Shown: positions 12,832 to 62,426 of the stretch, in pieces
Position numbering within the stretch: position 1 is the stretch's first letter
How the letters are laid out: each line of letters opens with the position of its first letter
DNA from: a virus
Reading direction: 5' to 3' (one strand)
Length of the DNA stretch: 64,000 bases
Virus record (IMG/VR): IMGVR_UViG_3300005827_000047
Coordinates: 1 to 64,000 of that record
The notes under the pieces: generated by a model
Told to the model about the DNA's origin: nothing
The model's input: only the letters and a program-made list of their open reading frames with translations
Databases searched by the model: none
Position numbers and translations under genes: made by a program

Positions 12832-12842
12832 TAAATAATACA

Positions 12843-13317: not shown

Positions 13318-13326
13318 AAAATCAAA

Positions 13327-17542: not shown

Positions 17543-17562
17543 AATAGTTTATAAACATTTAT

Positions 17563-17570: not shown

Positions 17571-17575
17571 TAATT

Positions 17576-41400: not shown

Positions 41401-42491
41401 TATGGCCTTCTAAGCTAGTTACTGATGTTAAAGAGGTATTCTCTTCTATTCAATCTGATTTCTTAACTGAGGACATTATAAATGCTTTAAACTATGATCT
41501 ATTTACTTATCTGTTTACTTTACCTGGAAGTCCTTTAACTTATGCTAATCTAAGTGAGTATCTATATGGAGGAGAGAAACCTCCTTTAGCTGATAGAGTT
41601 AAAAGACTTCAAGATAGAGAAAGAGCTTTATTTAAGGAAGATCCTAATTATGTAATGAATCCTTTTATAATGTCTCTTTCTGAAAAAGAAGTTAAAGTAG
41701 ATTCTGTATTCTATGAAGAGGATATGAAAGTTACTAAAAGTAGGGTAGATCATAAACTAGTTATCTTTGATGATACTTCAGGAAGTAGAACTAAAGATCA
41801 AAAATCTGATATCTCAGATAGTTGGTATGATCTATTCTTAGAAGATAAAACAAGTGATTTAGCTTGGGATCTAGCTTTGTACTCTTTCTTTATAAACGGA
41901 TTCAATAGAGGAGCTTATACCTTTATGGATTATATTCCTATTGAGATGCTTGAGGATATGGGAGTTATAGATTACTATAAGAAGATAGAAGGAGCTATTA
42001 AAGCTGGAAGTACATTAAACATAGATATCCAAGACTTTATAGAGAAGTTCACTAGGAATACTAAGAACCAAGGATTAAACTTTATAAAGAGGATTAAGAA
42101 AGAAGGTAAGATACTTGTAGGAGCAACACTAACTAAAGATGAATTAACTGTAGAGGATTCTTATACTATTCAAACTGATACAGGTAGGTACTTTCCTAGA
42201 ATAATAGGATTACCGGATAAAGGATTAAGACTATTTAAGTTTGTTAAGATGGAAGGAGATAAAGGATTATATAAAGAGATTAATCCTCTAGGTACTAATA
42301 TTATAAGAGAGTATATGCCTAATAAGCAAATAGAATCTATCTTTGCACAGAATAATAAGACTAAGGAAGAAGTGATAAGTGAAGATAACTTTATACCTGA
42401 TACTTTACCTGAAGTAATGTATGAACCTGAATTAGATATAGATCAAGTATCAAATGAAGAAGCAAGAGAAAGGATGAAAGATTGTGAATAA
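32496..42491 (+). CDS. giant polyvalent virion protein with zincin metallopeptidase motif and crAss-like two-barrel (DPBB) RNA polymerase domain
   Basis: 3331 aa. 'IIHEFTHSY' HExxH at 36261-36275. 'MIANRIPNQAKNSMVMCKIV...IMLPKEGTRQGGYDFDIDKS' (NRIPNQ 39978-39995; DFDID 40098-40112) parallels bacterial beta-prime 'NRAPTLH...AYNADFDGDQ'. Confidence 0.75.
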   Translation: MPNDILKEIAKLSGKEAPKVVGTYLSPTTMGDSQYDKGILPTYGDEQGALNKIRARKQTNWDSFANMLVRGVGKALITVPETVGYLADIPEMLGITDDYDNKLSEISRQGKSWLDEVMPEYSRSIADSGFKPLEAEWWFRSGDSIVESLGYLIPGYAVGRGAGAALKLLKASGDIQKYGSTIAAAVGLNYAETMQTAGDHYRESVKQYLNTKDEYGNPVYSEQQAKELASEEASSIVWQGKVNTLFELPAMMSLFKSLGKLPISSRSLKGIDSSKFSIAGELGKQMGSEYLEEVGLGFIQSEQERKRDIRLGKEVKEGNVLSRLVNYAFSDQGLTEGLMGALGGGLFGSLAIKGQKEEYTKQQNLVKELTGKNSEEITKVFKDIGEYNKKEAEAAKLGDSIGFTVAQEQKLNVLAAMNAKAGTFSQFLDNLDLAAEAVGDTTNLEEYKKQAKYVEKIVNRVESYQYPREFKDKLIDNLVNQRVYQNTAGKISKDINQIYQDNILDTSISPNLNLLYNKKKILEKAINKSEGKKLEFAKTKLKELESQIETQLPYTIEDGKEGIKRTLEDISKYSNPVVDSLVQPLISQELKYQYEAQESIDSYNDLIKDPQKSQERIMKEDLKEKRVETEEVIEEAKTKIEESPIEKAKEVVKDIDPILEEAGYTPEEIEDITSMLNESIINKEREEVKSEETKQVEESIVNGVFDNYRDQYLPLEEAEESQVSEESIEDKVYEVTPEPGLASTSREFKESNNKVIYNEIGKPITTGQEEEFDFGYLNSPLFNAGSDVELYVDKDSKYMQEGKGNTPETIHIKIRSNGKIIGNLKNFRPTGNSIEDLDTMEVRSYLFNNPDAVLTTKVREKTRGFILNSKVLEDGKLVPARNSVRSLTDTPILAIPTSESEGMVNYEGKSYGPLTKGKLYALIPSANGSLIPVTLNPRKFTKKESLSIVNFIRSNFYPSIASIDRLSKGDNIIINGKPLTVVSIGDKIIGFSKKESKEYSFPLESEVYLNNYLNNKEQLESYINFPSPKVNFTQDRLILPDKYYKYDEYSDEFLANLISNLYLDVSNKKLKDNSKFTSITGKEYNSYQDFILDNNFYTTDIDTIRPFYGAAVYLEKPIISTKVESLEPKEVEVSIEPVKEAVEKVNKADLFGEDSPLRFAKIESLGKSSLVLPGDNKSIIDFAIANSNEYSARVGSLIKERLDLNKDLIVEISDKETLFGPSRYTMFYSSEDNKIVIPKETIENVPQDILAEKIIHEFTHSYTEYALLKAKWYPDKLTKEERIFTDTIGDLYRQASKFIDKSNYGMSNTSEFLAELANPLFAKTLDSIVVDNRSIFKRIVDAILKLLGFKVEPKETLYKKTFDALANYLTSANKVDYSISGEVKYARIPSISRTEQKRRVDTINFMFVKGAINLVKKGPYSFEYLTKNQVKEIYDQIKDYLSDNPLAKSVIDNWDLFVIESKKSLVDFGFLYKEDGDTIEIDDTTKESWQVKAFENNLKDSLSKQVKLYLRFIERVDKEGNYIKDDLGRNTFLPYDEISIYLAKNLADLDTNEEKLNKILELSKIRPELKRIYIDLSTDLTSDNFKNNFFTNFSKTKVKFITVLSEGKDSSSVSKVINTSRKNLAKDILSEWKVTYERELVNGKPNKDKVDKAKELIKVRYGDVVTDEQADNLSKALDSIGIFIPSNRFSGMNKEDISKYITGPSSVNTLFESLSKGYDIFNIVEEQSVKGEGRTLRKLAELESLLRPEDITPSVVNGENNRIYALQNNTAISKEIRRLKKSVTDYLSDPFYALGTNINWGIDRLMKDREFRENFDVAVFDSERLNQPGRKGTPYNNINPSLWNKVKINAVLNQGAKYGWFPFPTPADKENIYFAYLPKHRLTKEGDLLTGESLEMYRKIVLSETARIFNAHSELFNWEEKDLIVGYHYESSLSPKEAKDRAKEGVFSGKAFEYHIFKELNDLGFNKKAINTTEFLPSEMDTIDRVINSYFSKRVSETIDYFKETNIISEVNGVYSNIEIDVTSLREYNSIEDAIENYVYNVQMGYWFIDSILLGDPAFTKSYDDYTKRVALWQTPGTDIGGGQYTVTIVKDILTKSKFAESYKKALSEVGVSKDKIDEIIGVEKDSRGKPSGYYDINQTDAQGLCTWDRYLDIMRRQGNLRPEITDNLDRISKGEITPEEANILFAPVKGTNIGYRIVNGKRVPVAVKYSLTPILPSFRKYPKFARLLDNLEKEGIDELIFESGFKLGTQQLGQVNNPRSWNKIKLNNDSYRIPQVVPYKDTGKTLLPTQSMKNIIVNINPDALYKVDDEVVSGESLVMEYQEVIAQNIKDDFKKVIKKLDPNDKSSLLKNLQKLFLSESRRRNNMPDNHIKALDIVDDDFRVPLSFPLFSSSRESMLFSLFKKKVSTRKVPGFSAVNVSDFATTYDEDNKLNFYTVSYTDPTDSQVFTIEAAEIAVSQDYFRNIIKAKYPEYNLEGDIVLDKIPEDLRYMIANRIPNQAKNSMVMCKIVSLLPKEAASQIMLPKEGTRQGGYDFDIDKSFILTKNFKIVEGELKTIKYYSKEDQTKLRYGQYLEELAKSDQLREILREYKVDLQEQEDIYFILGNELEEKINKVLSIDSSSIEEEEYFELLTDYLSMEGISEEEFSKLSIIEQNTKQARENRIVDFYIAVLSSSHNFYESILPNNMDTLASVRKKILQILNPIESGRDIINDYQQSLTREKNQAGKQLVGVHSNSAVARAYLQILKYESDTAAYFDGKELFSMGAFKDYKDNLITDNHLELQTAAVDNAKDPILGDLNDNIYTADVWDFLVDLGVPLETIAYFMTQPILVELSKRWNNGGRTTSAAESAYKSLKEEYFLSGAEEMKDKNLNTKDLIEQLKASDPSYQLNVLNQFITYKEGAKSYTNLIQSLRADSVRTLPSVVGNQLYMDRYNKVVTKEMKDKLPMVDAFTKYGIDKPLELASDLFIWPSKLVTDVKEVFSSIQSDFLTEDIINALNYDLFTYLFTLPGSPLTYANLSEYLYGGEKPPLADRVKRLQDRERALFKEDPNYVMNPFIMSLSEKEVKVDSVFYEEDMKVTKSRVDHKLVIFDDTSGSRTKDQKSDISDSWYDLFLEDKTSDLAWDLALYSFFINGFNRGAYTFMDYIPIEMLEDMGVIDYYKKIEGAIKAGSTLNIDIQDFIEKFTRNTKNQGLNFIKRIKKEGKILVGATLTKDELTVEDSYTIQTDTGRYFPRIIGLPDKGLRLFKFVKMEGDKGLYKEINPLGTNIIREYMPNKQIESIFAQNNKTKEEVISEDNFIPDTLPEVMYEPELDIDQVSNEEARERMKDCE

Positions 42492-45400
42492 GTGTCCAAT
42501 AAAAAATGATTCTTGGATTAAGTTAGTAAATGAAGTAGGTGAAGTTAATGCCTATAAGTACTTTATACTTAATAATGAAGAGACTCCTTCAGAAGAGCAA
42601 GTAAATAAGATTATAGAGAATAGGAAACCTACTCCCTCTAAACTACTTAAATTGTATAATGCGGATATTAATGGCTTCATACCTAAGAATGTTATAGTAG
42701 AGAAGCTTAGAATAGATGCTAAGAAATTAGGATTAGAAGTTAGAGAAGCTTCAAATGGTAAATACTATTTAACTAAAGAAGGTAAGAAGATTAACTTTTA
42801 TTCCTTATCCGGAGAAGGAGATAGAAATAGTGAACTTGAGAATAAGTTAAAAGGAATACTCTCTAATATAGGAATAAAAGTAGAATCCTATAGTTCTCTA
42901 GTAAATAAATTAGGAGTAGATGCTTCAGGTGCAGCAGATATCTTAAATAAGATAATCTATATTTCAGAAGATAAAGCTAAGTTAGATACTTTACCAGAAG
43001 AAGTAGCTCACTTCTTTATAGCTGGATTAGGTACGGATAATCCTTTAGTAAGTAGATTAATGAACTCTATTAAAGATCATCCTATCTATAAAGAAGTAGA
43101 GAAAGAGTACTCTTCTTTAAACTTATCTGAAGATATCCTTAAGGAAGAAGCTGTAGGTAAGTTGCTAGGTAAGTATATAGTTCAAGAGTTCAATAACTCA
43201 GAAGGAGTAACTATTTGGAATAAGTTTAAAGGTACTTTAGATCTTATTATAGATAAAGTACTTAAGCTATTCAAGAAGATAACCAATAAAGATCTCTATT
43301 CACAAGTAGAGGAGATATACGGAGATTTTGCTAAAGATATACTTAAGGGTAACATCAATCCTTCTAAAGAAGATAAGGTATTCTATCAATTAAGTAAAGA
43401 GTTAAAAGAGTATTCTAAAATAGTTGAGGATAAACTTAAAGCTATTAAATCTAGAGTAATTAAGTATTCCGTATATCAAAATGAGTATAAGTCTTCTGAG
43501 AAGATACAGGAATACTTAGATACTACTATTCAAAGAGCTAAAGAGATAGAAGAGTTAAATAAGTTAAATCACGAAGAAGCTTACTCAAAGTTATTACTCT
43601 TAGTTAATGATGGGCTAAAGGATATAAAAGAGAGGATATCATCTGCTCCTTTAAGTCAAATGGGATTATCTAGATCTATAGAATTTGTAACTTCTTATAA
43701 GGATATAAATCTAGTAGAATCAGATAGTGAAGTGATAAAAAAAATAGCTGGCTCTATAGAGGGAGAAAGAGTAAGGATAGAAGCTGAGTTACTAAAGTTG
43801 AGTCAAGAATCTTTATCTGAAATAGTGCAAGAAGAATCTTTATCTGATAAAGAAGATTTGATTACTCCTATAAAAGATCTATCCTTTGATCAAAGATGGT
43901 TAGGAGCTATGGCTAATGCTGATGATACTTTATTAGCTGTTGTAGATAAACTATATAAGAGAGAAGTAGTAGATAAGACTAGTGATATTATAAGAACCTT
44001 TAAGTATAATCATGATAAGCTATATGAGAAGGTTAATAAAGAAGATCTAAGTTTACTTTTTGAGAAAGTAGATAGTAGACCTAATTTCTATATGCTTCAA
44101 ACTAATGATCCTATTAGGTTTACTTCTAAGTATAAGTATGAATACTACTTATTGATGGATAAAGCTAAGATGGAAGCTGATGCTTATCCTAAAGGATCTG
44201 AAGGAAGAAAAGATGTATGGAAAAAGTTCTTTAGTGAAAATCATACTAGAGGATATAGAGATGAATATGGTAATTGGATAAATGGAGAACCCTTAGCTAA
44301 GTTTGAGAATGAGGATTATAAAAAGATTCAAAGTAATAAGGATCTTAAAGAGTACTATGATTTCATAATGAGATGGAAAGAGAACTCTGATAATCTTATG
44401 GGATTATCTTCTTATCCTTTAAGAAAGTCTAGTATTCCTTATTTCTTTTCTGATTTATCTGAGAAGATAGCTAAGAATAAATTATGGAACAGCTTAAAAG
44501 GATTAGGTAAAGAGATCTCTTCTTCTATAGAGTATACTAAAGGAGATAGAGCTTTAGTAGATGAATCCGATAAAGAAGTTAAAGTAATCAGAAAGCAAGG
44601 AGTAGCTAGAATAGATGAATCTCAAAGAACTTATAATATTCCTGATATTATATCAGCTTATGTATATTCAGCTAATCTTTATAGAGCTAAAAGAGAAGTT
44701 CAGGGAATCATAGAATTAGCTAAGACTTATGCTGAAGCAAGAAAGATTCCTAAAACTAATTGGAGAGGTAAGGTACTTGATCAAAATGGAGATCTAGTAA
44801 ATATAGAAGGAGCTAGTTCTGCTTCTTACCAAAGATTCAAAGATTGGTATAATATGATCTATATAGGAGATACTGATAAAGAGAAAGGCTTTAAGATCTT
44901 CGGTAAAGAAGTTTCAGATAAAAAGATAGCTAAAGCATTTGGTAAGTATTCTTCTATAACAGCTTTAGGATTAAACTTATTCTCTGCTGTATCCAACATA
45001 GTATATGGAGGATCTATGCAAGTAATAGAAGCTATGGGAGGAGAGTTCTATTCTGCTAAAGATTATTTATGGGCTACTAAGAAATATGGAGAAAGTGCAT
45101 TATCTGATAAGATGAAGTTAATGCTTGATTACTATAGAGTATTACAAGATACTTCTTACTTCGGAGATAAGAAGAGTATGATAAGCAAAATACTATTTGG
45201 AGCTAACTCAGCTGGAGAGCACATGATGCAGTCCAGAATATTCTTAGCTATGAGTCATAACTATAAAGTTAAAGATGCTAAAGGAGTAGAATATAACTTA
45301 TGGGATGCTTATGAAGTAGTAGAAGGAAGACTTAAACTTAAAGAAGGTATAGAGTTATCTCAAAGAGAGATATCTGATTTTAGAAGAAAAGTAGAGGGAG

Positions 45401-46080
45401 TTAACCAAAGACTTCATGGTAGATATACAGATTTAGATAATGCAGCTTTAAGTCAAACAGCTTTAGGATATCTAGCTTTACAATATAGGAAATGGATTCA
45501 TCCGGGATATGAAGCTAGATTTAGAAATCAATACTTTGATGAAAGGTTAGGTCAATATATTAAAGGTAGATACTTATCTTATCTAGACTTCTTTAAAAGC
45601 ATTAAAGAGCTTAAATCTATTGCAGCAGGTTGGAATAATCTATCTGATCATGATAAAGCTAATATGAAGAGGAATATAGCTGAATTAGTATACTTAACAG
45701 GAACCATCCTACTATTATCTGTATTAAGATCTTTATCAGAAGATGATGATGAACTTGATGATTCTAAAGCTTTTAACTTCTTTATGTATCAAGTAGATAG
45801 GTTTAACTCTGAATTGAAATTCTATAACATAGGTATAGTAACTGGAGATCTTACTAAACTAATAAGAACTCCAGCTGCATCTATCTCTGTTATAGAAAAT
45901 GTAGGTAGGTTATTAAATGATACTCTTCAATATCCTTTTAGAGATGAAGAAGAGAATATAGTTAAGGGAGAAGAGTATACTAAGATTCAAAGAGACTTTG
46001 AAAGACTTATTCCTCTTATTAAAGAAACAAGGAGATGGTCAAACTTAGAAGATCAAGCTACTTACTTTAAGACTTACTAG
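42484..46080 (+). CDS. large virion/ejection-associated protein (unknown function)
   Basis: 1198 aa, 8-nt overlap with the RNAP gene. Mostly helical, with hydrophobic segments 'SSITALGLNLFSAVSNIVYGG' and 'ELVYLTGTILLLSVL'. Last gene of the + strand arm. Confidence 0.4.
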   Translation: MNKCPIKNDSWIKLVNEVGEVNAYKYFILNNEETPSEEQVNKIIENRKPTPSKLLKLYNADINGFIPKNVIVEKLRIDAKKLGLEVREASNGKYYLTKEGKKINFYSLSGEGDRNSELENKLKGILSNIGIKVESYSSLVNKLGVDASGAADILNKIIYISEDKAKLDTLPEEVAHFFIAGLGTDNPLVSRLMNSIKDHPIYKEVEKEYSSLNLSEDILKEEAVGKLLGKYIVQEFNNSEGVTIWNKFKGTLDLIIDKVLKLFKKITNKDLYSQVEEIYGDFAKDILKGNINPSKEDKVFYQLSKELKEYSKIVEDKLKAIKSRVIKYSVYQNEYKSSEKIQEYLDTTIQRAKEIEELNKLNHEEAYSKLLLLVNDGLKDIKERISSAPLSQMGLSRSIEFVTSYKDINLVESDSEVIKKIAGSIEGERVRIEAELLKLSQESLSEIVQEESLSDKEDLITPIKDLSFDQRWLGAMANADDTLLAVVDKLYKREVVDKTSDIIRTFKYNHDKLYEKVNKEDLSLLFEKVDSRPNFYMLQTNDPIRFTSKYKYEYYLLMDKAKMEADAYPKGSEGRKDVWKKFFSENHTRGYRDEYGNWINGEPLAKFENEDYKKIQSNKDLKEYYDFIMRWKENSDNLMGLSSYPLRKSSIPYFFSDLSEKIAKNKLWNSLKGLGKEISSSIEYTKGDRALVDESDKEVKVIRKQGVARIDESQRTYNIPDIISAYVYSANLYRAKREVQGIIELAKTYAEARKIPKTNWRGKVLDQNGDLVNIEGASSASYQRFKDWYNMIYIGDTDKEKGFKIFGKEVSDKKIAKAFGKYSSITALGLNLFSAVSNIVYGGSMQVIEAMGGEFYSAKDYLWATKKYGESALSDKMKLMLDYYRVLQDTSYFGDKKSMISKILFGANSAGEHMMQSRIFLAMSHNYKVKDAKGVEYNLWDAYEVVEGRLKLKEGIELSQREISDFRRKVEGVNQRLHGRYTDLDNAALSQTALGYLALQYRKWIHPGYEARFRNQYFDERLGQYIKGRYLSYLDFFKSIKELKSIAAGWNNLSDHDKANMKRNIAELVYLTGTILLLSVLRSLSEDDDELDDSKAFNFFMYQVDRFNSELKFYNIGIVTGDLTKLIRTPAASISVIENVGRLLNDTLQYPFRDEEENIVKGEEYTKIQRDFERLIPLIKETRRWSNLEDQATYFKTY

Positions 46081-46285
46081 CTTTCTCTACTAGAACAGTA
46101 GCAAATTTATAGAAATCTACTTCTCCAGTAAGACGAAAAGTATACAAAATCCCTTTTCCTGTTACAATCCCTTTGAGAGAAGAAATAATTTCTTTACTTA
46201 GGAATAAGTTAGCATATAGTACATTTCCTCTTAGTACACCTCTATTCTGTAATTCCTTGTGTAAGTTTTTTATATTCATCATCAC
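46067..46285 (-). CDS. NLF[IL]P-motif small protein family, array A copy 1
   Basis: 72 aa. Family core 'NVLYANLFLSKEIISSLKG'. Its 3' end overlaps the convergent + strand gene by 14 nt. Confidence 0.55.
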   Translation of the reverse strand: MMMNIKNLHKELQNRGVLRGNVLYANLFLSKEIISSLKGIVTGKGILYTFRLTGEVDFYKFATVLVEKASKS

Positions 46286-46472
46286 TAATTATTTTATATT
46301 CTAATCCAAACTCATTTATTCTTCCATTAAGTATAACCGGTATATTATAATGACTAAGTAATAGATTAGAAAGATAGCTTGCTATGGTTTTAGGCAAGTA
46401 TAAACCTAATTGAGCAGTATGATATATTATACTTCTACCTTTTAATTGTTTATATAGTTCTATTTTTTCCAT
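46242..46472 (-). CDS. NLF[IL]P-motif small protein family, array A copy 2
   Basis: 76 aa. Core 'TAQLGLYLPKTIASYLSN'. Confidence 0.55.
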   Translation of the reverse strand: MEKIELYKQLKGRSIIYHTAQLGLYLPKTIASYLSNLLLSHYNIPVILNGRINEFGLEYKIISDDEYKKLTQGITE

Positions 46473-46485
46473 AGATAATTACTAA

Positions 46486-46680
46486 TTATTTTATTATAGC
46501 GTAATCTAAACCATAAGAATCTACTGTTCCTGTATATCTAATAGTAGTGCCTTTACGAGTAATCTCTAAACCTTCAAGCCTATTTATTATACTCTCTGGC
46601 AAGCACAGATTCTTATGAAAAATATCTATCAGTATTATATCTTTAAATACTAAGTATTCGTGTATTTCTTTATTATTCAT
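46486..46680 (-). CDS. NLF[IL]P-motif small protein family, array A copy 3
   Basis: 64 aa. Core 'IFHKNLCLPESIINRLEG'. Confidence 0.55.
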   Translation of the reverse strand: MNNKEIHEYLVFKDIILIDIFHKNLCLPESIINRLEGLEITRKGTTIRYTGTVDSYGLDYAIIK

Positions 46681-46904
46681 ATTTTAGACTTTATAAATTT
46701 TAAATGTAGATATACTCCGTTAGAAGCATATCCTATTTCTCCTGAATAAGCTAATCCGTAGTTAAACTTAACTCCTACAGAAGCAAGTTTAATTCCTTTC
46801 ATATTAAAGAGAACTACAGAAGGTATAAACAAATTACTTAAAATAGCTGCTCTTCTAATAATGCTTTTATCCGATAATTCTTCTGGTAAACTTTTAATAA
46901 TCAT
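46677..46904 (-). CDS. NLF[IL]P-motif small protein family, array A copy 4
   Basis: 75 aa. Core 'AAILSNLFIPSVVLFNMKG'. 4-nt overlap with copy 3. Confidence 0.6.
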   Translation of the reverse strand: MIIKSLPEELSDKSIIRRAAILSNLFIPSVVLFNMKGIKLASVGVKFNYGLAYSGEIGYASNGVYLHLKFIKSKI

Positions 46905-46924
46905 ATTAATGTTATTTTCATAGT

Positions 46925-47146
46925 CTAATCTCCTAAGAGTAAATACCTTTTTTCTAGATATAGTCTAGTGTAAAATCTTTCTTTACTAACGCTAGTAACT
47001 GTACCTTTAAACTCTATATAATTAAAATTAGGATATTTAATCCCCTTTAAGCTAGCAACTATTGAAGGAGTTAAATATAAGTTGTTAATAAAAAGTGGAT
47101 CTTCTCCAACAATCTCTCTACTAATTAATTCTTCTATTCTATTCAT
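46925..47146 (-). CDS. NLF[IL]P-motif small protein family, array A copy 5
   Basis: 73 aa. 'MNRIEELISREIV...INNLYLTPSIVASLKG'. Confidence 0.6.
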   Translation of the reverse strand: MNRIEELISREIVGEDPLFINNLYLTPSIVASLKGIKYPNFNYIEFKGTVTSVSKERFYTRLYLEKRYLLLGD

Positions 47147-47330
47147 AATCTAAATAAATTCCTATTGAAGGGTATATGTTAATTTTACCTGTGAATTTAA
47201 AATTTAAAAAACCAAATGGAATAACTATATCTGCTTTAATCTTAGATAAAGTAATAGGCGTTATAAATAAACTTCTTACTTTGGCTCCACTTACTATCTT
47301 TCTTTCTCTTAATTCTTCTATCGTATTCAT
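47139..47330 (-). CDS. NLF[IL]P-motif small protein family, array A copy 6
   Basis: 63 aa. 'MNTIEELRERKIV...RSLFITPITLSKIKA'. 8-nt overlap with copy 5. Confidence 0.6.
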   Translation of the reverse strand: MNTIEELRERKIVSGAKVRSLFITPITLSKIKADIVIPFGFLNFKFTGKINIYPSIGIYLDYE

Positions 47331-47335
47331 AACTC

Positions 47336-47515
47336 TTAAAGCTCTGAGGCTAAATAAACTTTATTATCATCAAATGCTGTTTCACCAGTAAGTTCATAGT
47401 CAGCATTAGGAAATAAAGGATTACCTTTACAATTTAAAGCAATAGTTTTAGGTAGATATAAGTTATGTACAGCACATCCATAAACTATTTCATGATCTTT
47501 TAAGCGGGTTAGCAT
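47336..47515 (-). CDS. NLF[IL]P-motif small protein family, array A copy 7 (not in ORF track)
   Basis: Hand-translated 59-aa ORF MLTRLKDHEIVYGCAVHNLYLPKTIALNCKGNPLFPNADYELTGETAFDDNKVYLASEL. Its ATG overlaps the stop of copy 8. Confidence 0.5.
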   Translation of the reverse strand: MLTRLKDHEIVYGCAVHNLYLPKTIALNCKGNPLFPNADYELTGETAFDDNKVYLASEL

Positions 47516-47712
47516 CTTCGTATTTTTTGAATCATTATACCTATAGCTTTTAAACCTTCAAATTCAATAAAAGGTCTAGTATAGCCATGATTTATTTTAA
47601 CTCTTAATATATGTAACATAGATCTTGGTAAAAACATATTATCTATGTAGGGGTAATATTTTATACCCTTCTGAAGGATATCTCTTCTTTTAAGTTCTTC
47701 TTTTAAAATCAT
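47509..47712 (-). CDS. NLF[IL]P-motif small protein family, array A copy 8
   Basis: 67 aa. 'MILKEELKRRDIL...IDNMFLPRSMLHILRV'. Confidence 0.55.
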   Translation of the reverse strand: MILKEELKRRDILQKGIKYYPYIDNMFLPRSMLHILRVKINHGYTRPFIEFEGLKAIGIMIQKIRRC

Positions 47713-47722
47713 ATCTTTATCT

Positions 47723-48166
47723 TTATATTTCTATTACTAAATAATAAGTTATACCTTCATCAGTATAGATATCTACAATCCTAATTAAACTTTGACCTAT
47801 TCCTAATAATATAACTTTACTTTCATAAGTAATACTCTTAGAGCTTAATATCTTAAAGCTAATATCTTTATCAGATGTAGGTTCTGTTACAGTAACCATA
47901 GCAGCTCTAGGATTACTGGTATAGAAATGAGCTTCTATAATATACTGAAAGTAATCACAAGCAAACTTTAATAGACTTTCAGTAATAAATAGATTTGGTA
48001 TTCTAAATGCTTTAGTAAGAAGTACTTGTTTAGTTCTGCAATGAATGTAAGTATTAACAGAATAAGTATATCCTTCTCTAACATTAGAATCAATGAGAGA
48101 GTAAACAAAGTAACTTCTTTCACCTAGTAACTCTATTACCTTCTTAAAATTAATAATCTCCTTCAT
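47723..48166 (-). CDS. NLF[IL]P-motif family, array A copy 9 (longer, extra C-terminal region)
   Basis: 147 aa. Core 'AFRIPNLFITESLLKFAC' in mid-protein. Confidence 0.5.
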   Translation of the reverse strand: MKEIINFKKVIELLGERSYFVYSLIDSNVREGYTYSVNTYIHCRTKQVLLTKAFRIPNLFITESLLKFACDYFQYIIEAHFYTSNPRAAMVTVTEPTSDKDISFKILSSKSITYESKVILLGIGQSLIRIVDIYTDEGITYYLVIEI

Positions 48167-48464
48167 CTATCAAATCCATTAATTGCTTTCTAAACTTTCC
48201 ATCTCCTGATAAATAATCTACTGTAGCTATAGGGATAAATAGATTATCCCTACGAATCTGAAACTCATATAGAATATGCTTATAGCTTTTAGTTTTGGAG
48301 TATGTAATATCAGTAAGTGAAGCATAAGGGTATCTTTTGTCAACATTATAAACTGGTACATAGTATTCAATTTCATCATCAGCTAATCTATTACATACTT
48401 CAATATAGAGTTTATATTTCTCTTTTATATTATTATAGGATTTACCTAACTCTTTTCTCTTCAT
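48150..48464 (-). CDS. NLF[IL]P-motif family, array A copy 10 (N-terminally extended)
   Basis: 104 aa. Core 'IRRDNLFIPIATVDYLSG' near the C-terminus. 17-nt overlap with copy 9. Confidence 0.5.
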   Translation of the reverse strand: MKRKELGKSYNNIKEKYKLYIEVCNRLADDEIEYYVPVYNVDKRYPYASLTDITYSKTKSYKHILYEFQIRRDNLFIPIATVDYLSGDGKFRKQLMDLIDEGDY

Positions 48465-48467
48465 AAG

Positions 48468-48632
48468 TTACTTCTTTATAAACATTACTATATTCCCAAA
48501 AGTAGACATATTGTACCCCTTACATAAAGAAGTAGGAGTAAACAAGCTATATAAAATCACAGCATAGTTTGAGCTAGTAAAAAATCCACTATAATAAACT
48601 ATTTCTCTTTTTATTAACTGTTTAACTCTCAT
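48468..48632 (-). CDS. NLF[IL]P-motif small protein family, array A copy 11 (not in ORF track)
   Basis: Hand-translated 54-aa ORF MRVKQLIKREIVYYSGFFTSSNYAVILYSLFTPTSLCKGYNMSTFGNIVMFIKK. The motif is degenerate ('SLFTP'). Confidence 0.4.
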   Translation of the reverse strand: MRVKQLIKREIVYYSGFFTSSNYAVILYSLFTPTSLCKGYNMSTFGNIVMFIKK

Positions 48633-48801
48633 ATTTTAAAATGTTATGCTTAGTTTTAAATTCAAAAAGTGTACTTCCTCTTATAATTATACCAATGTTG
48701 CAACTATTAGCTATAGCTGAACTAATAAATAAGTTATCCGTTTTTATAAGATTACTCCCAAAATGTATAAAAACTAATTCTCTTTGTATGAACTCTCCCA
48801 T
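48622..48801 (-). CDS. NLF[IL]P-motif small protein family, array A copy 12 (not in ORF track)
   Basis: Hand-translated 59-aa ORF MGEFIQRELVFIHFGSNLIKTDNLFISSAIANSCNIGIIIRGSTLFEFKTKHNILKYES. Its stop overlaps the ATG of copy 11 (ATGAGAGTTAA). Confidence 0.45.
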   Translation of the reverse strand: MGEFIQRELVFIHFGSNLIKTDNLFISSAIANSCNIGIIIRGSTLFEFKTKHNILKYES

Positions 48802-48953
48802 TAACTTTTAAAATGAAACATTCTATTACTAGAAACAAACCTTTTGATGCTGTATTCACTGGCTATAGTAGAGTATATAAATAAGTTATTTAACAGTATT
48901 ATATCCATTACAAAATCTACAACAGCTAATTTTCTTTCTCTAAACTCTATCAT
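48801..48953 (-). CDS. NLF[IL]P-motif small protein family, array A copy 13 (not in ORF track)
   Basis: Hand-translated 50-aa ORF MIEFRERKLAVVDFVMDIILLNNLFIYSTIASEYSIKRFVSSNRMFHFKS. TAATG overlap with copy 12. Confidence 0.45.
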   Translation of the reverse strand: MIEFRERKLAVVDFVMDIILLNNLFIYSTIASEYSIKRFVSSNRMFHFKS

Positions 48954-49024: not shown

Positions 49025-49342
49025 TTAATCCAATACTGGAATGTTCTTTCTTGCATAAGGATCATAAGATACTTGAATAGTTTTTACCCAAGTTCCTTTT
49101 TCTACTTTATGAGCAAAGTGCTCATGATGAGTTAGAATTCCATCTTCAGTAATCTGAAGTTTATCTAGGAATATCTCATCTCCTGAATAATCCTTAACAT
49201 CTTTACTAAGGTCTACTACTTCACAAGAAGTATTCAATAAGTGGTGATGTCCAGTTACTTCACCATGTTGAAGGATTGCTCCTTTAGTGTAACCTTTAAC
49301 TGCTACACTGCTTTGATAAGTTTTTAAATCTACTTTCTCCAT
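49025..49342 (-). CDS. His-rich hypothetical protein (possible metal-binding small beta-barrel)
   Basis: 105 aa. 'HGEVTGHHHLL' and 'ILTHHEHFAHKVEKGTW'. Flanked by its own TAnnTTTG box and terminator. Confidence 0.45.
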   Translation of the reverse strand: MEKVDLKTYQSSVAVKGYTKGAILQHGEVTGHHHLLNTSCEVVDLSKDVKDYSGDEIFLDKLQITEDGILTHHEHFAHKVEKGTWVKTIQVSYDPYARKNIPVLD

Positions 49343-50584: not shown

Positions 50585-51191
50585 AAAGCTTAAGTTGTTG
50601 TACCTCTGCTCTTAAATCCTGATAGAATGTATATATTATCTTTCTATCATCGATACTAGCTACCGGAGTAAACTTAGGACCACTACCAGGTTGAGTAATA
50701 AACCTAACTGAATCATCAGGTATCTTACCTTCACTTACTAGTAAATCATTAAATACTTTAGAATAGATTACTCCAAAGTTTTCAATATCCCAATTAGCTG
50801 CTCCGGGTATAGTAAATAACTCACAATCTATAATAACAGGTAATTCTCTAATTATTGGTAAATTAACTACATAAGGATATAGGAATTCCTTTAATCCATT
50901 TACTATTCTTACCCTAGTTAAATAGTTACCTGCATATATATGCTGATTGTTTATAGATAGATATTTAGGAGTACCTGCTGATCTTGAATTAGCCATAATT
51001 CTATTACCAGCTTCATCTAAAATATATCCTTCTATATCTGTTAAGTTATTCTTATACCTTTTAGGTATTTTAGTTTTTCGTAGCTTACCAGGATTCTTAT
51101 TATAGTATATAGGCTTCCTCTTCTTTGAGAGAGTTACCTTCATTAAGAACTGGGGTATCACTACTTTGAATAATAACCTTTTTTCTTCCAT
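50574..51191 (-). CDS. RusA-like Holliday junction resolvase (candidate)
   Basis: 'IIDCELFTIPGAANWDIENFGVIYSKVFNDLLVSEGKIPDDSVRFI' parallels the RusA core '[36 protein letters not shown]'. The true start may be the internal Met at 51143. Confidence 0.5.
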   Translation of the reverse strand: MEEKRLLFKVVIPQFLMKVTLSKKRKPIYYNKNPGKLRKTKIPKRYKNNLTDIEGYILDEAGNRIMANSRSAGTPKYLSINNQHIYAGNYLTRVRIVNGLKEFLYPYVVNLPIIRELPVIIDCELFTIPGAANWDIENFGVIYSKVFNDLLVSEGKIPDDSVRFITQPGSGPKFTPVASIDDRKIIYTFYQDLRAEVQQLKLWEI

Positions 51192-51915
51192 TCTCCTCTA
51201 ATCGTTTTTCTTCAAGAAATTTTATTACTTTGGATGCAACCTTATTCCTTTTAGTGGGAGTTTTGGATAGCTTTAAGGATTGTACACCGAATAATTTATT
51301 AAGGTTTGCACTCTTTGCTATAATTGGTGTAGAATCAAATATTGATATAATAGATGTTGAACGGATTACTTTATCTAAAGTATAAGAATACCAAAATTGA
51401 AATATAGAATAATCCGGTTCAATACGATCTTTAATGCAACTTTTATAGTATTCTACATCTTTCCTATGCACCATAATTGCATAAGCTATTTCAAAATAAC
51501 CTTTAGCAAAAGATAGATTTATATTATTTAAAGTACTAGAATTATCAAACCATCTATTTCTATACACAAATCCAAGTAATCCATTCCAAGCTAATGAATA
51601 TTCTTTTGATCTGTAAATAAATGGACTTGTTCTTACAACTTCTATTCTTTCAGTTTCTCTAAGAGAATTACTAGAGAATCCATAAGAGTCAAGATTACGA
51701 GGTATCCTTAACTTAAAACTAGTTGAGTTTTCATCAAAGTTAGGATCACAAATAATAGCAGATGCAGGAACATACTCTGAATCATTTATCTGGATATTAA
51801 TATACTTATCATCTACACTAATATAAGGATCTTCCTTAAAAGCTAAAGAATTATATAGATGCTTTTCACTTTTAGTAGCTATTGATATTATATCATCTTT
51901 AATATTCAACCTCAT
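51100..51915 (-). CDS. hypothetical protein (partner ORF of the Ubl/E1/JAB operon)
   Basis: 271-aa ORF. Its start overlaps the stop of the E1-like gene by 17 nt. No diagnostic motif. Confidence 0.45.
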   Translation of the reverse strand: MRLNIKDDIISIATKSEKHLYNSLAFKEDPYISVDDKYINIQINDSEYVPASAIICDPNFDENSTSFKLRIPRNLDSYGFSSNSLRETERIEVVRTSPFIYRSKEYSLAWNGLLGFVYRNRWFDNSSTLNNINLSFAKGYFEIAYAIMVHRKDVEYYKSCIKDRIEPDYSIFQFWYSYTLDKVIRSTSIISIFDSTPIIAKSANLNKLFGVQSLKLSKTPTKRNKVASKVIKFLEEKRLEENGRKKVIIQSSDTPVLNEGNSLKEEEAYIL

Positions 51916-52750
51916 AATATAGACTTGTTAATTCTGTTTTAATACTAAAAGGCAAAGAAGTTATCTCTGCTCCTTTTATATAGTTACTTAAATAATTAGT
52001 CAGCATAGAAACCATATAAGCAGCTATCATATAAGCATAGTGGGTAGTTACTTTTAAAGCACAGTTCTCTCTAACTACTTCAGAATCCTCAAATAGAGTT
52101 TCTTTATATCTATCCATATTATCTTTAGTGACAATATAGATTTGAATATTGCTATACAATAATCTACCATCTATAAATACACAAGGAATATCTCCTTCAT
52201 TATCTATAGCTTCTTCTTTCCAACTTTCAAATAGATTTTTCCTTGCTTCCATATTATCAAAGCAAGAAAAGCAAATAGATTCTATAAGAGATTCATTTGT
52301 TACCTTTTCAAATCTAGGGATTACATTATTTTCACCTGAGAATAACTTACTTAACTCTTGTACAGCATATACTTTTTTCACGTGTATCTGAGATACAGTA
52401 TAAGCTTGACCTCCTATATTCTCTTCTCCTACTGAATCATTATCCCATACAGTTATAGTATGACCTAATCTAGATAATAACATAGTTAAATGAGATCCTA
52501 TTCCTCCTGCTCCTCCTACTGTTATTTTGTAGAACTTATTATACCAAATTGCATCTTTAAATCTAGATGTTCTTCTATTATAATCAGTTACTTCAATATA
52601 ATCACTAATAGGTTCTTCAGAGGATTCTTCATCATCTTCTTCATCCTCATAATTATGATAATCTTCATCTTCTATATCTTGATTTTGATACCTAGAGTCT
52701 TTATCAAGATTTAAGATATTGTGATATCCGGGAATATTAACTAACTCCAT
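51899..52750 (-). CDS. ThiF/MoeB/E1-like adenylyltransferase
   Basis: 283 aa. Rossmann signature 'KITVGGAGGIGSHLTMLLSRLGHTITVWDNDSVGEENIGGQ' (GxGxxG at 52493-52516). Upstream 'RRTSRF' (RxSRQ-like) and 'CFDNMEARKNL' (DNxxxR). Acidic N-terminal extension. Confidence 0.75.
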   Translation of the reverse strand: MELVNIPGYHNILNLDKDSRYQNQDIEDEDYHNYEDEEDDEESSEEPISDYIEVTDYNRRTSRFKDAIWYNKFYKITVGGAGGIGSHLTMLLSRLGHTITVWDNDSVGEENIGGQAYTVSQIHVKKVYAVQELSKLFSGENNVIPRFEKVTNESLIESICFSCFDNMEARKNLFESWKEEAIDNEGDIPCVFIDGRLLYSNIQIYIVTKDNMDRYKETLFEDSEVVRENCALKVTTHYAYMIAAYMVSMLTNYLSNYIKGAEITSLPFSIKTELTSLYYEVEY

Positions 52751-55362: not shown

Positions 55363-55608
55363 TTAATTACCAGCTTTAGTTCTAGTTTCTATGATGTAAA
55401 TAGTTACACCATCATCATTAGGAAGAGTATCATTAGGAGATAATACCCACTGTTTACCTCCAGACCAAGTATTTCCTACTTTAGCTCTTTTACCTTCTAA
55501 TTCAGGATATTTATCACATACTTCTTTCCAAGTAATGTTTTCACCTACTTGATACTCTTCTACTGTACCTCCAGAAAAGGTATCTACTATTTTAATTGTT
55601 CTAGCCAT
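55363..55608 (-). CDS. ubiquitin-like / ThiS-MoaD-like beta-grasp protein (candidate)
   Basis: 81 aa. 'TIKIVD..GGTVEEYQVGENITWKEVCDKYPEL...VLSPNDTLPNDDGVTIYIIETRTKAGN' fits the beta-beta-alpha...beta layout of ThiS/MoaD/Ub. The penultimate Gly is followed by a single Asn. Confidence 0.5.
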   Translation of the reverse strand: MARTIKIVDTFSGGTVEEYQVGENITWKEVCDKYPELEGKRAKVGNTWSGGKQWVLSPNDTLPNDDGVTIYIIETRTKAGN

Positions 55609-58055: not shown

Positions 58056-58271
58056 TTAACTTTTTATTTCTCTCCACCACTCAATCTTAGTACCCGGATG
58101 TAATTTACTTTTACTAAATACAATAGGTCTAGATTCATCATGAGCTATTAATGTTAGTGTATATTCTTTAGTAATTATATTAATAGGAATAAAGAGATTA
58201 GAAGAAAATAATAAATCTGTAATAGTCCAGGGGATCTTAGCAACTTCTCTATCCTTTAACTCTTTTATCAT
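58056..58271 (-). CDS. NLF[IL]P-motif small protein family, isolated copy
   Basis: 71 aa. 'MIKELKDREVA...LLFSSNLFIPINIITKEY'. Embedded between the helicase and ATPase genes. Confidence 0.55.
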   Translation of the reverse strand: MIKELKDREVAKIPWTITDLLFSSNLFIPINIITKEYTLTLIAHDESRPIVFSKSKLHPGTKIEWWREIKS

Positions 58272-60524: not shown

Positions 60525-60960
60525 CTTTATCTATAACAAGCTGTTTAAATTCTAATACTCTTTTCTCTATCGCTTTACTTATTAGAGATACAATCTTATT
60601 AAACTTATCTCTATACTCTTTATCTGTTACATAAAGATCTTCATGCCTTCTTCTAGAGTTTAATATAGTTGTATGATTAACTCCACCAGTAAGCTCTATA
60701 ATCTTTTTCTGACTTAGATTAGTGTAGTTATATAGTATTACTCTTATTTGATGTCTAGCATCTACATATTCTTCTTTCCTTCCTGTAAATACTTTATCCC
60801 TAGCAATACTATGCACATCACATACTAAGTTAATAACAAAGTCTACATCTAATTCAGTAAGTCCAGATTCTCCAGTTAAGAACCCTAGAATATGATTAAA
60901 TCTCTCATTAAAGTCTTTAAGTAAATTCTTTAGTTCATTTACTACATCTATTCTTGTCAT
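60514..60960 (-). CDS. DnaA domain IV-like helix-turn-helix DNA-binding protein
   Basis: 'VDARHQIRVILYNYTNLSQKKIIELTGGVNHTTILNSRRRHEDL' parallels DnaA C-terminal 'R..a.yL.r.lt..S...IG..fg.rDHtTVlha..ki'. Confidence 0.5.
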   Translation of the reverse strand: MTRIDVVNELKNLLKDFNERFNHILGFLTGESGLTELDVDFVINLVCDVHSIARDKVFTGRKEEYVDARHQIRVILYNYTNLSQKKIIELTGGVNHTTILNSRRRHEDLYVTDKEYRDKFNKIVSLISKAIEKRVLEFKQLVIDKDVD

Positions 60961-61145
60961 TGATCTAGTGGTTTATGCAATTTTTTAATTCTGATTAGAC
61001 TATGCTTTCTTGAAGTTTCTAAGTTATTTGCGGGAACATCAAATAGATTAGTAATTTTAAAATAATATGTTTCAATATTAATTCTATTTACATCAAAACT
61101 ACCCAATATACCTCTATCACACATCTGAATTAATTGTGTATCCAT
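60957..61145 (-). CDS. small hypothetical protein (weak NLF-motif family member)
   Basis: 62 aa. 'YFKITNLFDVPANNLE'. Similarity is marginal. Confidence 0.3.
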   Translation of the reverse strand: MDTQLIQMCDRGILGSFDVNRINIETYYFKITNLFDVPANNLETSRKHSLIRIKKLHKPLDQ

Positions 61146-61498
61146 ATAGTTACATTAGGATTATAGTTATAATTTCCAAAATACTTTAAGTCGGGAAAAA
61201 AGGCTGTAAATAGATTTTTAGTTGTAATACGTAAACCTATAATTTTTGCGCTGGCAGGCTTTCTGTAAATATCAGAATCAGATATTTCTCTATTTCTTAC
61301 ATCTATAGAAAATAAATATCCTCCATAAACATTAAAGTAAACTCTACTAATACTAGAGTATAAATTTACCTTTACTAAAGTAATCTTTTCTATTTTAGGA
61401 GGTATAAATAACCCCGATAATATAAAAGCATCACCTCCAATTTTAACACTTAGATCTTTTAAAATAAGATCTTTAGCTGATTTTATTAACCTTTCCAT
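61130..61498 (-). CDS. NLF[IL]P-motif family, array B copy (122 aa, motif present twice)
   Basis: 'AFILSGLFIPPKIEKITL' plus a second 'TTKNLFTAFFPDL'. Possibly a fused duplicate. Confidence 0.5.
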   Translation of the reverse strand: MERLIKSAKDLILKDLSVKIGGDAFILSGLFIPPKIEKITLVKVNLYSSISRVYFNVYGGYLFSIDVRNREISDSDIYRKPASAKIIGLRITTKNLFTAFFPDLKYFGNYNYNPNVTIWIHN

Positions 61499-61659
61499 AT
61501 ACTCATAAGGGGTCTTAGGATATTATGTGCTACAAATTTCATTTCAGGAGAAGCTATTATGAATAGATTTTGAGTAATAGTATAATCATAAGGATAGAAT
61601 CTTCCAAAATAAGAATTGAATATCCCTCTTTCTGCTGCTTCTTCTAAATATTTTTCCAT
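61486..61659 (-). CDS. NLF[IL]P-motif small protein family, array B copy (not in ORF track)
   Basis: Hand-translated 57-aa ORF MEKYLEEAAERGIFNSYFGRFYPYDYTITQNLFIIASPEMKFVAHNILRPLMSIWKG. Overlaps both neighbours. Confidence 0.4.
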   Translation of the reverse strand: MEKYLEEAAERGIFNSYFGRFYPYDYTITQNLFIIASPEMKFVAHNILRPLMSIWKG

Positions 61660-61832
61660 ATTAATAAAGGATGATCAGAGAACTTAAAATCATAAGAACA
61701 AGTACTCAAATTAGGTAAAGAAGTAATGAATAAGTTAAATACTTTAAAATACCCACATTTAGAGTATGTTGCCCTCCAACTATAACATATATCTCTTCTA
61801 TCGGCTTCTTCTAGAACTTCTATTGTTATCAT
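61644..61832 (-). CDS. NLF[IL]P-motif small protein family, array B copy
   Basis: 62 aa. 'YFKVFNLFITSLPNLS'. Confidence 0.45.
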   Translation of the reverse strand: MITIEVLEEADRRDICYSWRATYSKCGYFKVFNLFITSLPNLSTCSYDFKFSDHPLLIWKNI

Positions 61833-61986
61833 CTATGTATATTAAATTTAATCCGTCAAAAGTCCTAAAATAGATCTTTATTCCTTCTATCTTAGGTAAA
61901 AAAAGATTGGTATTAAAAGCAGTATTTAAATATCTACTTCCAACCATATCTCTATTTAAAAGCTCTCTCATAGTTACCTTATTCAT
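61798..61986 (-). CDS. NLF[IL]P-motif small protein family, array B copy
   Basis: 62 aa. 'MRELLNRDMV...AFNTNLFLPKIEGIKI'. Confidence 0.5.
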   Translation of the reverse strand: MNKVTMRELLNRDMVGSRYLNTAFNTNLFLPKIEGIKIYFRTFDGLNLIYIDDNNRSSRRSR

Positions 61987-62182
61987 TTCTTATGGGGGTT
62001 ATAGCAACAAGAATTCTTTCAGAACTTGATAAAACAATGGAACTTATAAATCTAATTCCTTTTCCTTCTATAGGGGGAATAAATAGATTATTTGCTAAGG
62101 AATACTGATCCCAAGCAAAACTATTAAGCAGATCCCTATATAATAGATTATATATTAATTCATTTACTTCTATTACTCTCAT
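61979..62182 (-). CDS. NLF[IL]P-motif small protein family, array B copy
   Basis: 67 aa. 'YSLANNLFIPPIEGKGI'. The motif context closely matches the copy at 61798..61986. Confidence 0.5.
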   Translation of the reverse strand: MRVIEVNELIYNLLYRDLLNSFAWDQYSLANNLFIPPIEGKGIRFISSIVLSSSERILVAITPIRNE

Positions 62183-62426
62183 TATTATAGTTCTTAGTTA
62201 GTATTAACCTAGGTGAAAAAACAAAATCTTTGTGAAATCCAAATTTAACTACTAAGCTGCTAGGAAAGAAGCCACTATTAATATCAATTATAAATTGTAC
62301 TGCATCTAATTCTGTAGTATAAAATACATAAGGATCATAATTAAATCTCCATTCAATACGACTAAATATATCCCTATTATAAAATAGGTCTAGATAGTCT
62401 TTATCTTTATTAAATTCTATATCCAT
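62160..62426 (-). CDS. small hypothetical protein (degenerate family member?)
   Basis: 88 aa. 'INSGFFPSSLVVKFG'. Its ATG overlaps the stop of helicase exon 2 by 10 nt. Confidence 0.4.
   Translation of the reverse strand: MDIEFNKDKDYLDLFYNRDIFSRIEWRFNYDPYVFYTTELDAVQFIIDINSGFFPSSLVVKFGFHKDFVFSPRLILTKNYNNESNRSK

Follow-up and report, generated by a model that had tools for sequence, protein, structure and literature searches.

The stretch analysed here comprises positions 1 to 64,000 of the IMG/VR virus record IMGVR_UViG_3300005827_000047 and is called the window below; copy counts for this phage cover these 64,000 nucleotides (nt) of a genome of about 85 kb. At 46067-48953 the window contains 13 successive minus-strand open reading frames (ORFs) of 50-147 aa, which occupy 98% of the interval in the ORF listing. 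They belong to a genuine, previously undescribed, lineage-specific phage protein family of about 50-80 aa, mostly basic, which we refer to as the NLFIP family. An earlier examination of the letters alone (the sequence-only reading) had reported these 13 minus-strand ORFs, four of them shorter than 60 aa, and both their positions and their lengths were confirmed. The array members are listed below, each with its E value and rank in a search with a hidden Markov model (HMM) built from the other copies (leave-one-out).

A01, 46067..46282, minus strand: 71 aa, alternative GTG start at 46285; core ANLFLSKEIISSLKG; leave-one-out E 1.7e-8, rank 1
A02, 46242..46472, minus strand: 76 aa; core LGLYLPKTIASYLSN; leave-one-out E 1e-4, rank 1
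A03, 46486..46680, minus strand: 64 aa; core KNLCLPESIINRLEG; leave-one-out E 4e-3, rank 1
A04, 46677..46904, minus strand: 75 aa; core SNLFIPSVVLFNMKG; leave-one-out E 5e-8, rank 1
A05, 46925..47146, minus strand: 73 aa; core NNLYLTPSIVASLKG; leave-one-out E 9e-11, rank 1; AlphaFold model made
A06, 47139..47330, minus strand: 63 aa; core RSLFITPITLSKIKA; leave-one-out E 9e-9, rank 1; AlphaFold model made
A07, 47336..47515, minus strand: 59 aa; core HNLYLPKTIALNCKG; leave-one-out E 4e-7, rank 1
A08, 47509..47712, minus strand: 67 aa; core DNMFLPRSMLHILRV; leave-one-out E 4e-4, rank 1
A09, 47723..48166, minus strand: 147 aa; PNLFITESLL at residue 57; borderline member
A10, 48150..48464, minus strand: 104 aa; core DNLFIPIATVDYLSG at residue 73, behind a long N-terminal extension; E 9e-3, rank 1
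A11, 48468..48632, minus strand: 54 aa; core YSLFTPTSLCKG; leave-one-out E 2e-4, rank 1
A12, 48622..48801, minus strand: 59 aa; core DNLFISSAIANS; leave-one-out E 7e-8, rank 1
A13, 48801..48953, minus strand: 50 aa; core NNLFIYSTIASE; E 2e-4, rank 1; transcriptionally the first array gene

The array ORFs are protein-coding. Stop codons are expected at 9.4% of codons in DNA of the array's composition (the region has 27% GC), and a 60-codon open frame would occur by chance with a probability of about 0.003. When codon usage was modelled on the window's long genes, every copy scored positive in its own frame (0.2-0.73 bits per codon, compared with a mean of 0.65 for the long genes) and negative in the other two. 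The genes are densely packed: seven of the 13 junctions are overlaps of 1-41 nt, five leave 3-20 nt between the genes, and A13 stands 71 nt away from its upstream neighbour. A scan for promoter- or terminator-like sites inside the array found no enrichment. At its downstream end, A01 overlaps a convergent gene for a 1198-aa protein by 14 nt at the stop codons (46067-46080). No terminator-like hairpin was seen there between the convergent genes of the early arm and the virion block.

Membership in the family was evaluated by profile searches against the 337 six-frame ORFs of at least 40 aa in the window. In the leave-one-out searches, 12 of the 13 array ORFs ranked first of the 337 (E 1e-10 to 9e-3). 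When an HMM was built from the 13 array ORFs alone, its top five non-training matches were small minus-strand ORFs carrying the motif, located at 58056-58271 and 61130-62182. Six further supported copies lie beyond the array, one at 58056-58271 and five at 61130-62182, and when all copies were considered, a profile of the other members placed 18 of 19 first among the non-training ORFs (E 9e-11 to 9e-3). The exception is A09, which was unsupported in the leave-one-out search (E 1.0) and reached E 3e-4 after iteration; its positional orthologues in related phages are 134-142 aa long and 28-40% identical. The orthologues of A10 in three relatives (L001, L004 and L005) are 93-97 aa long and 34% identical. 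The copies outside the array, followed by three candidates of lesser standing, are as follows.

D1, 58056..58271, minus strand: 71 aa, SNLFIPINIITKEY; isolated member; E 1.8e-5 with the array-only HMM; lies between the DnaB-like helicase gene and the AAA_24 gene, with a positional counterpart in L005
B1-B5, 61130..62182, minus strand: second cluster of five members, each rank 1 with E 2e-4 to 6e-3 (B1 61130-61498, B2 61486-61659, B3 61644-61832, B4 61798-61986, B5 61979-62182)
C1, 49371..49652, minus strand: 93 aa; NSLFVSENVFYSL near the C-terminus; resemblance only, E 1.1, rank 13; fast-evolving in relatives
B0, 60957..61145, minus strand: 62 aa; TNLFDVPANNL; marginal, E 0.36 in leave-one-out and 0.047 after iteration
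B6, 62160..62426, minus strand: 88 aa; N-terminal '..LFYNRDIF' helix without a clear core; unsupported, E 8.6

Together, the window holds 18-19 supported copies and up to three doubtful ones, and about 5% of the genome is given to 18-22 diverged copies of a protein of about 65 residues.

The phage, its relatives and the distribution of the family

The phage, which comes from a metagenome, is assigned to the crAss-like phages (Crassvirales) from its predicted proteins. Its TerL is at most 41% identical to those of Crassvirales, and the 1198-aa protein, encoded on the plus strand at 42484-46080, is 26% identical over 90% of its length to a crAss 'putative RNA-polymerase subunit'. The plus-strand ORF at 32496-42491 (3331 aa) matched no Pfam family and carries DFDID at residue 2535. 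According to a published report, DFDxD is the hallmark motif of the crAss virion RNA polymerase (RNAP) (bioRxiv 10.1101/2020.03.07.982082). A giant ORF of the DFDxD type, a TerL of the crAss type and a neighbouring large virion protein were all found in this genome. The phage is crAss-like and not N4-like. Its host probably belongs to the Bacteroidota and would be AT-rich.

Positions 1-46080, on the plus strand, form the structural block, to which the virion RNAP gene also belongs. On the minus strand lie the replication genes, for a primase, a DnaB-like helicase, an AAA_24 protein, a RusA-like resolvase, a DnaA-C helix-turn-helix (HTH) protein and an SNF2-type helicase. The array forms the last part of this minus-strand (replication) arm and converges on the virion-RNAP block. 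For Cellulophaga phage phi14:2, that report describes the whole strand of the replicative module as an early class transcribed by the virion RNAP (bioRxiv 10.1101/2020.03.07.982082). By analogy with phi14:2, early expression of the array is plausible.

Searches for related loci in IMG/VR with single proteins returned no close relatives, and the matches listed for the family profile at database scale were, apart from P0024 (see below), the window contig's own proteins. Relatives were reached through the 1198-aa protein: contigs of 82-92 kb encode homologues of it with 80%, 54% and 55% identity. Two further relatives were found with the enlarged family profile. In all of these loci (L001-L005; L010 and L011 are the same phage as L002), small minus-strand genes stand at exactly the same junction. 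The family itself was found at the array position in four related metagenomic phages (L001, L004, L005 and L002/L010), and an iterative HMM search collected 48 members in five phages (18 in the window, eight in L001, seven in L004, eight in L005 and seven in L002). The profile was scanned over about 600 kb across all 52 loci, and in the 42 unrelated phage loci (L012-L052) nothing was found below E 0.2. At the junction, two more distant crAss-like contigs (L007 and L008) and a crAss001-like genome contain no small-gene array; ordinary replication genes or a different large gene are found there instead. As far as is detectable, the family is confined to one small clade of environmental crAss-like phages.

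The sister phage L003 (JGI 3300068448) carries about eight small minus-strand ORFs at the syntenic place (13884-17265). They share a core, N-G-F-[ILV]-[CH]-x-K-[LV]...L, which often lies near the C-terminus. They share the position, strand and gene size of the NLFIP array, have a similar N-terminal 'M..h..L...I' helix, and the spacing N-x-F-[IL]-x-x-x-h-x-x-x-L is the same, but Gly replaces Leu, and Cys or His replaces Pro. NLFIP members were enriched among the weak matches of the L003 profile (12 of the top 21 non-L003 matches, P = 2e-5), although the two families were not significantly related by hhalign (probability 0.14%, with the cores aligned) or by iterative HMM search. Judging from these resemblances, the two arrays probably share an ancestor, and the L003 core looks like a lineage-wide change of the family's motif. 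That each genome has a single core, not shared between the lineages, may result from co-evolution with one partner or from different founders.

Several genes around the array and in the relatives were also recorded. Directly upstream of the array lies the gene for a 105-aa His-rich protein (GHHHLL ... THHEH; 49025-49342, minus strand), possibly a small metal-binding protein, for which neither Pfam nor PHROGs gave a family. Its identity is 58-73% across all the relatives, and 25-40% to proteins of about 40 unrelated IMG/VR phage contigs. Further along the arm, a ThiF/E1-like protein (51899-52750, minus strand; Pfam E 7.6e-13) is conserved in all relatives and adjoins a gene for a 425-aa protein (52737-54014, minus strand) with a sub-threshold Prok-JAB match (E 0.002). 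An 81-aa ORF ending in ...TKAGN (55363-55608, minus strand) lies 1.3 kb transcriptionally upstream of this pair, at higher coordinates; it had no Pfam match but could be a ubiquitin-like partner. L002, and likewise L003, has a second run of 69-78-aa ORFs (in L002 at 16819-17914, minus strand) beyond the homologue of the 292-aa gene; one of these ORFs is a supported family member, and others have S/N-[LI]-F-L-P-Y at the extreme C-terminus. L001 has an ORF with a weak Pfam match to GIY-YIG (9307-10008, plus strand) between the virion RNAP gene and a gene for a 1205-aa protein. An opposite-strand ORF with only a faint LAGLIDADG Pfam match occurs in the replication arms of both L001 (21152-22030, plus strand) and L004 (2621-3499, minus strand), the two being 99% identical. 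The L003 homologue of the 1198-aa protein (10001-13897, plus strand) contains an ART-PolyVal (ADP-ribosyltransferase) domain, which the window protein lacks.

Conserved core and predicted fold

Alignment of the 48 members with hmmalign gave a consensus of about 40 informative columns in the N-terminal part of the protein. It begins with M-x-x-[EN]-[LI]-[YL]-x-E-[LI]-x-x-R-x-[IL]-[VI] and continues, after 8-20 variable residues, with N-[LI]-[FY]-[IL]-[PTS]-x-x-I-[VAI]-x-x-[LI]-[KE]-[GN]; the informative columns are M1, E8, L9, R12, I14, N27, L28, F29, I30, P31, I34, L38 and G40. The C-terminal 25-35 residues are variable, and a weak h-x-F-x-G pattern is present there in a subset of copies. The second motif had been described as lying 18-30 residues from the start, which is correct for 11 of the 13 array ORFs but not for A09 (residue 57) or A10 (residue 73).

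The core Leu is encoded by TTA, CTA, CTG, TTG, CTC and CTT (the last two only in copies outside the array), Asn by AAT and AAC, Phe by TTT and TTC, and Ile by ATA, ATT and ATC. The only DNA repeat family is a 40-nt stretch at the 5' ends of A05, A06 and A08 (68-78% identity), with A06 78% identical to the 5' end of A05. Since synonymous codons vary at the core and there is only this one short repeat family, the motif is conserved at the protein level, as the sequence-only reading had proposed from the variety of Leu codons. The alternative of a DNA- or RNA-level element (a promoter, recombination site or repeat) that happens to lie in open frames finds some encouragement in the AT-rich composition and in the recurrence of short AT-rich words, but it is effectively refuted. 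Synonymous codons vary at every motif position, including the first position of Leu (TTA versus CTN), and conservation covers some 40 residues whose spacing varies. The single 40-nt repeat is not accompanied by any excess of promoter- or terminator-like sites, and the array-only HMM ranks the distant copies ahead of all other six-frame ORFs.

No profile from Pfam, PHROGs or NCBIfam matched the family at E 1e-3 or better (best single-member E 0.028), and the PADLOC defence-system profiles gave no matches. Against GenBank phages, no match was found by blastn at the DNA level or by tblastn with A05 or A09. A word-index search of 5.8 billion proteins retrieved only proteins of this phage clade. 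The database search with a family HMM that the sequence-only reading had suggested was run exhaustively over 1.84 billion proteins and pointed to no known family: among the matches listed, all were from this clade except P0024. This 528-aa alpha-CTD-like repeat protein (CTD, C-terminal domain; E 4e-4) was rejected as an artefact of weak scores summed over three repeats. The general database searches returned no named protein, and none of the copies resembled an anti-defence or takeover protein already described, no search having been made against a dedicated anti-defence library.

Other candidate folds were rejected as well. For the RNAP alpha-CTD or a helix-hairpin-helix (HhH), there was no match to Pfam RNA_pol_A_CTD or HhH and the spacing of the hairpin residues differs. 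Matches to pentatricopeptide repeats (PPR) in PDB were to designed PPR proteins, at 2-5 bits per repeat against the N-terminal helix, and were again a product of summation. The AbrB/MazE/SpoVT swapped hairpin, with its pattern '..v.IP..i...Lgl..gd.v', was considered because the family core resembles it; hhalign of a family alignment with two test sequences, AbrB-N and MazE, gave probabilities of at most 0.3%, and Pfam MazE_antitoxin gave no match at E up to 1. A ubiquitin-like fold and a precursor of a ribosomally synthesised and post-translationally modified peptide (RiPP) were considered because a ThiF-like gene is nearby. The first is at odds with the predicted order of helix, helix and three strands (itself of low confidence) and with the absence of a C-terminal Gly in most copies. 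The second is at odds with C-terminal parts that are rich in Lys, Glu, Tyr and Phe, with predicted strands and the semi-conserved h-x-F-x-G, and no modifying enzyme was found in or beside the array.

Structure prediction of single copies, another of the earlier suggestions, was made for two of them. The AlphaFold2 models of A05 and A06, from alignments of 23 sequences, agree in secondary-structure order (helix at 4-9, loop, helix, three beta strands), and in both the predicted second helix begins directly after the N-L-F-x-P core. They are of low confidence (predicted local distance difference test, pLDDT, 60 and 59; predicted template modelling score, pTM, 0.30-0.39), and Foldseek found nothing in PDB or BFVD with E below 2.

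The conserved positions are mainly hydrophobic, with Asn, Pro and Gly in addition. Pro falls just ahead of the predicted second helix, hydrophobic residues are spaced i/i+4 within it and Gly closes it, while the E...R pair of the first helix is one helical turn apart. Because such a pattern is the usual signature of a fold nucleus, we infer that the shared core would be the common nucleus of the fold, the reading we favour, and not an exposed docking peptide. The same composition makes the docking site for a common partner, which the sequence-only reading had entertained for NLFIP, the less likely interpretation.

A related model would still have the whole N-terminal module dock every copy on one partner, such as host RNAP, the replisome or the phage's own ThiF/JAB-like system, with the variable C-terminal halves adding second specificities. 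Most of the conservation does fall within roughly the first 40 residues, and the C-terminal part varies. The lineage-wide core switch in L003 would be expected from co-evolution with a single partner; the L003 HMM also preferentially retrieves NLFIP members (the 12 of its top 21 mentioned above), and D1 keeps its fixed site between the helicase and AAA_24 genes in two phages. However, the conserved residues are of the buried type and not surface-like, and the N-terminal half does not have a lower ratio of nonsynonymous to synonymous substitution rates (dN/dS, omega) than the C-terminal half. The link between the L003 and NLFIP families is not significant in profile-profile comparison, and a founder effect would explain a lineage-wide core equally well. 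We regard this model as rather doubtful. A more specific version, which we consider distinctly improbable, is that the copies would be interchangeable specificity modules plugging into one conserved machine through the core; the lineage-wide switch from N-L-F-I-P to N-G-F-I-[CH] would then have arisen because the repertoire co-evolves with that partner. If true, Crassvirales would have a new kind of adaptor system with multiple targets, serving host takeover or anti-defence, and its modules might feed host proteins to the phage ThiF/JAB-like enzymes or retarget the host polymerase.

The basic character of the family raises another possibility, namely that the copies are small proteins with an architectural or regulatory task, binding DNA or RNA of the phage or the host, for instance in host shut-off or in the timing of phage transcription. 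The median isoelectric point (pI) is 9.0 and 28 of the 48 members have a pI above 8; moreover, the predicted layout of two helices and a beta hairpin fits winged-helix-like binders, and the genes sit within the replication and transcription arm. Five members are acidic, however, no HTH, ribbon-helix-helix (RHH), AbrB or HhH family was matched, and the alpha-CTD-like (P0024) and PPR matches are sums of weak per-repeat scores of 2-5 bits each. Nor does anything obvious need some 20 fast-diverging regulators. Nucleic-acid binding appears unlikely as the family's function.

Phage T4 internal proteins bear a capsid-targeting sequence. By analogy, the N-terminal module could bring small proteins that are otherwise unrelated into the virion, to be injected along with the DNA, which would account for a conserved N-terminus with a variable remainder and for tandem hypervariable genes beside the block of virion-packaged proteins. 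This is highly improbable here, given that the genes are on the replication-arm strand and not in the structural (late) block, that the motif is far from the N-terminus in A09, A10 and several of the relatives' copies, and that no protease-site pattern was seen.

Divergence of the family and its possible role

Compared with the neighbouring genes, the family evolves several times as fast. Between the window and L001, L004 and L005, flanking proteins are 65-89% identical, whereas the best matches of array members reach 25-47% over partial length, and there are no one-to-one orthologues other than the 147-aa and 104-aa 'anchor' genes (34-40%). Within the trio L001, L004 and L005, the 1205-aa proteins are 95% identical and orthologous family pairs 39-87%. 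These pairs have dN of 0.07-0.52 and omega of 0.23-1.17 (about 0.65 when pooled), compared with mostly 0.06-0.35 for the flanking genes; several pairs, at 0.23-0.38, are under clear purifying selection. From about 7 (L003) to 13 (window) small genes lie between the conserved 105-aa gene and the large virion gene. The 271-aa ORF at 51100-51915 (minus strand) evolves as fast as the array (omega 0.44-0.64); it is 35-39% identical to its counterparts in L001, L004 and L005, compared with 65-77% for its neighbours, and its L001 orthologue has an 'NLYIPK' stretch with a weak match to the family profile.

The paralogues of the window are uniformly about 25% identical on core columns, with no effect of adjacency and no difference between the two clusters. 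This uniformity and the single short DNA repeat show that the copies are old, retained and fast-evolving, and not the product of recent amplification. The sequence-only reading of a lineage-specific, expanded, fast-diverging family without recognisable relatives is thus borne out by the profile tests, the database searches and the comparison of relatives. Its proposal of arms-race selection is not demonstrated by dN/dS, which is raised but does not exceed 1 overall. Diversifying selection at some of the sites and relaxed constraint would each be consistent with the raised omega, and the data cannot separate the two.

Relaxed constraint taken to its limit would make the copies near-neutral filler, that is, dispensable ORFs persisting by duplication and recombination under weak selection. 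An omega near that of spurious ORFs, a copy number that differs among relatives and in-frame codon scores lower than those of long genes would all be expected of such filler. It nevertheless seems quite unlikely, because phage genomes are under strong size constraint and because open frames and core have been kept in 48 copies although conserved proteins of these phages are only about 50% identical. Moreover, the paralogues are old yet intact, and purifying selection acts on the several orthologue pairs noted above.

The role that we consider most probable, though we hold it tentatively, is that of a repertoire of small binders directed against variable host proteins, in anti-defence or in takeover. 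The effector role that the sequence-only reading had put forward, in takeover, anti-defence or superinfection exclusion, is accordingly plausible. We infer such a host-directed role from the likely early co-expression, the restriction to one clade, the rapid turnover and the retention of many intact copies. The copies would share one fold scaffold, with the surface and the C-terminal half free to vary, and expression would be joint, from the early operon in which they are so tightly packed. Every copy would have its own variable host protein to bind and neutralise, such as a defence component or another takeover target, and the family would persist through continual gene turnover and rapid sequence change.

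Several observations weigh against this role. The timing of expression is taken by analogy from a distantly related phage; the sequence-only reading had placed the array where early genes are expected, which the phi14:2 comparison favours, but the array lies at the far 3' end of the arm, neither promoter-proximal nor first-injected, and away from the genome-entry end. The low confidence of the AlphaFold2 models means that the fold-core reading is drawn from the residue pattern. Pooled omega shows no real difference between the N-terminal half (0.67) and the C-terminal half (0.61), and an overall value below 1 is as compatible with relaxed constraint as with diversifying selection; in the same comparison, ORFs on the opposite strand that are spurious gave 0.5-1.0. 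Finally, no homologue with a known role appeared in any of the sequence and structure searches.

Comparison with known systems

Crassvirales are among the most abundant phages known, and to our knowledge almost nothing has been established on how they take over or disarm their Bacteroidota hosts. The NLFIP family is at present absent from Pfam, PHROGs and NCBIfam, and its roughly 50 small proteins are a defined, synthesisable set suited to screening for host inhibition or anti-defence activity. Should the copies turn out to bind different targets, they would represent a natural library built on one fold; a single shared partner would instead indicate a hub of the infection process.

The window resembles phi14:2 and other Crassvirales in its virion RNAP with DFDxD, its neighbouring large virion protein and its opposing replication arm. 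It differs from L007, L008 and crAss001-like genomes, which have no small-gene array at this junction.

Among viruses of eukaryotes, comparable multigene families with presumed host-interaction roles are found in large DNA viruses, for example MGF110, MGF360 and MGF505 of African swine fever virus (ASFV; MGF, multigene family) and the host-range families of poxviruses. These too consist of clustered, diverged paralogues with a conserved N-terminal portion and a variable copy number. The NLFIP family, in contrast, is found in a bacteriophage of about 85 kb, its proteins are much smaller and have no sequence relationship to those families, and its divergence is saturated (about 25% identity), with no recent amplification of the accordion type.

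Further parallels are the hypervariable clusters of virulent phages that serve accessory, anti-defence or takeover functions, such as the host-takeover module of SPO1, the internal-protein locus of T4 and anti-CRISPR loci. Like the NLFIP array, phage accessory clusters consist of tandem, packed small genes whose folds are not recognised and which, in the array's case by analogy, would be co-transcribed with early functions; their content also shifts between similar phages, and homologues are absent outside a narrow clade. The array is thus of a known type, that of viral multigene families or hypervariable clusters of early accessory genes. However, so many copies are unusual in a phage of about 85 kb, and while phage accessory clusters are mostly made up of unrelated genes, here 18-22 genes per genome come from one family that reuses a single scaffold.

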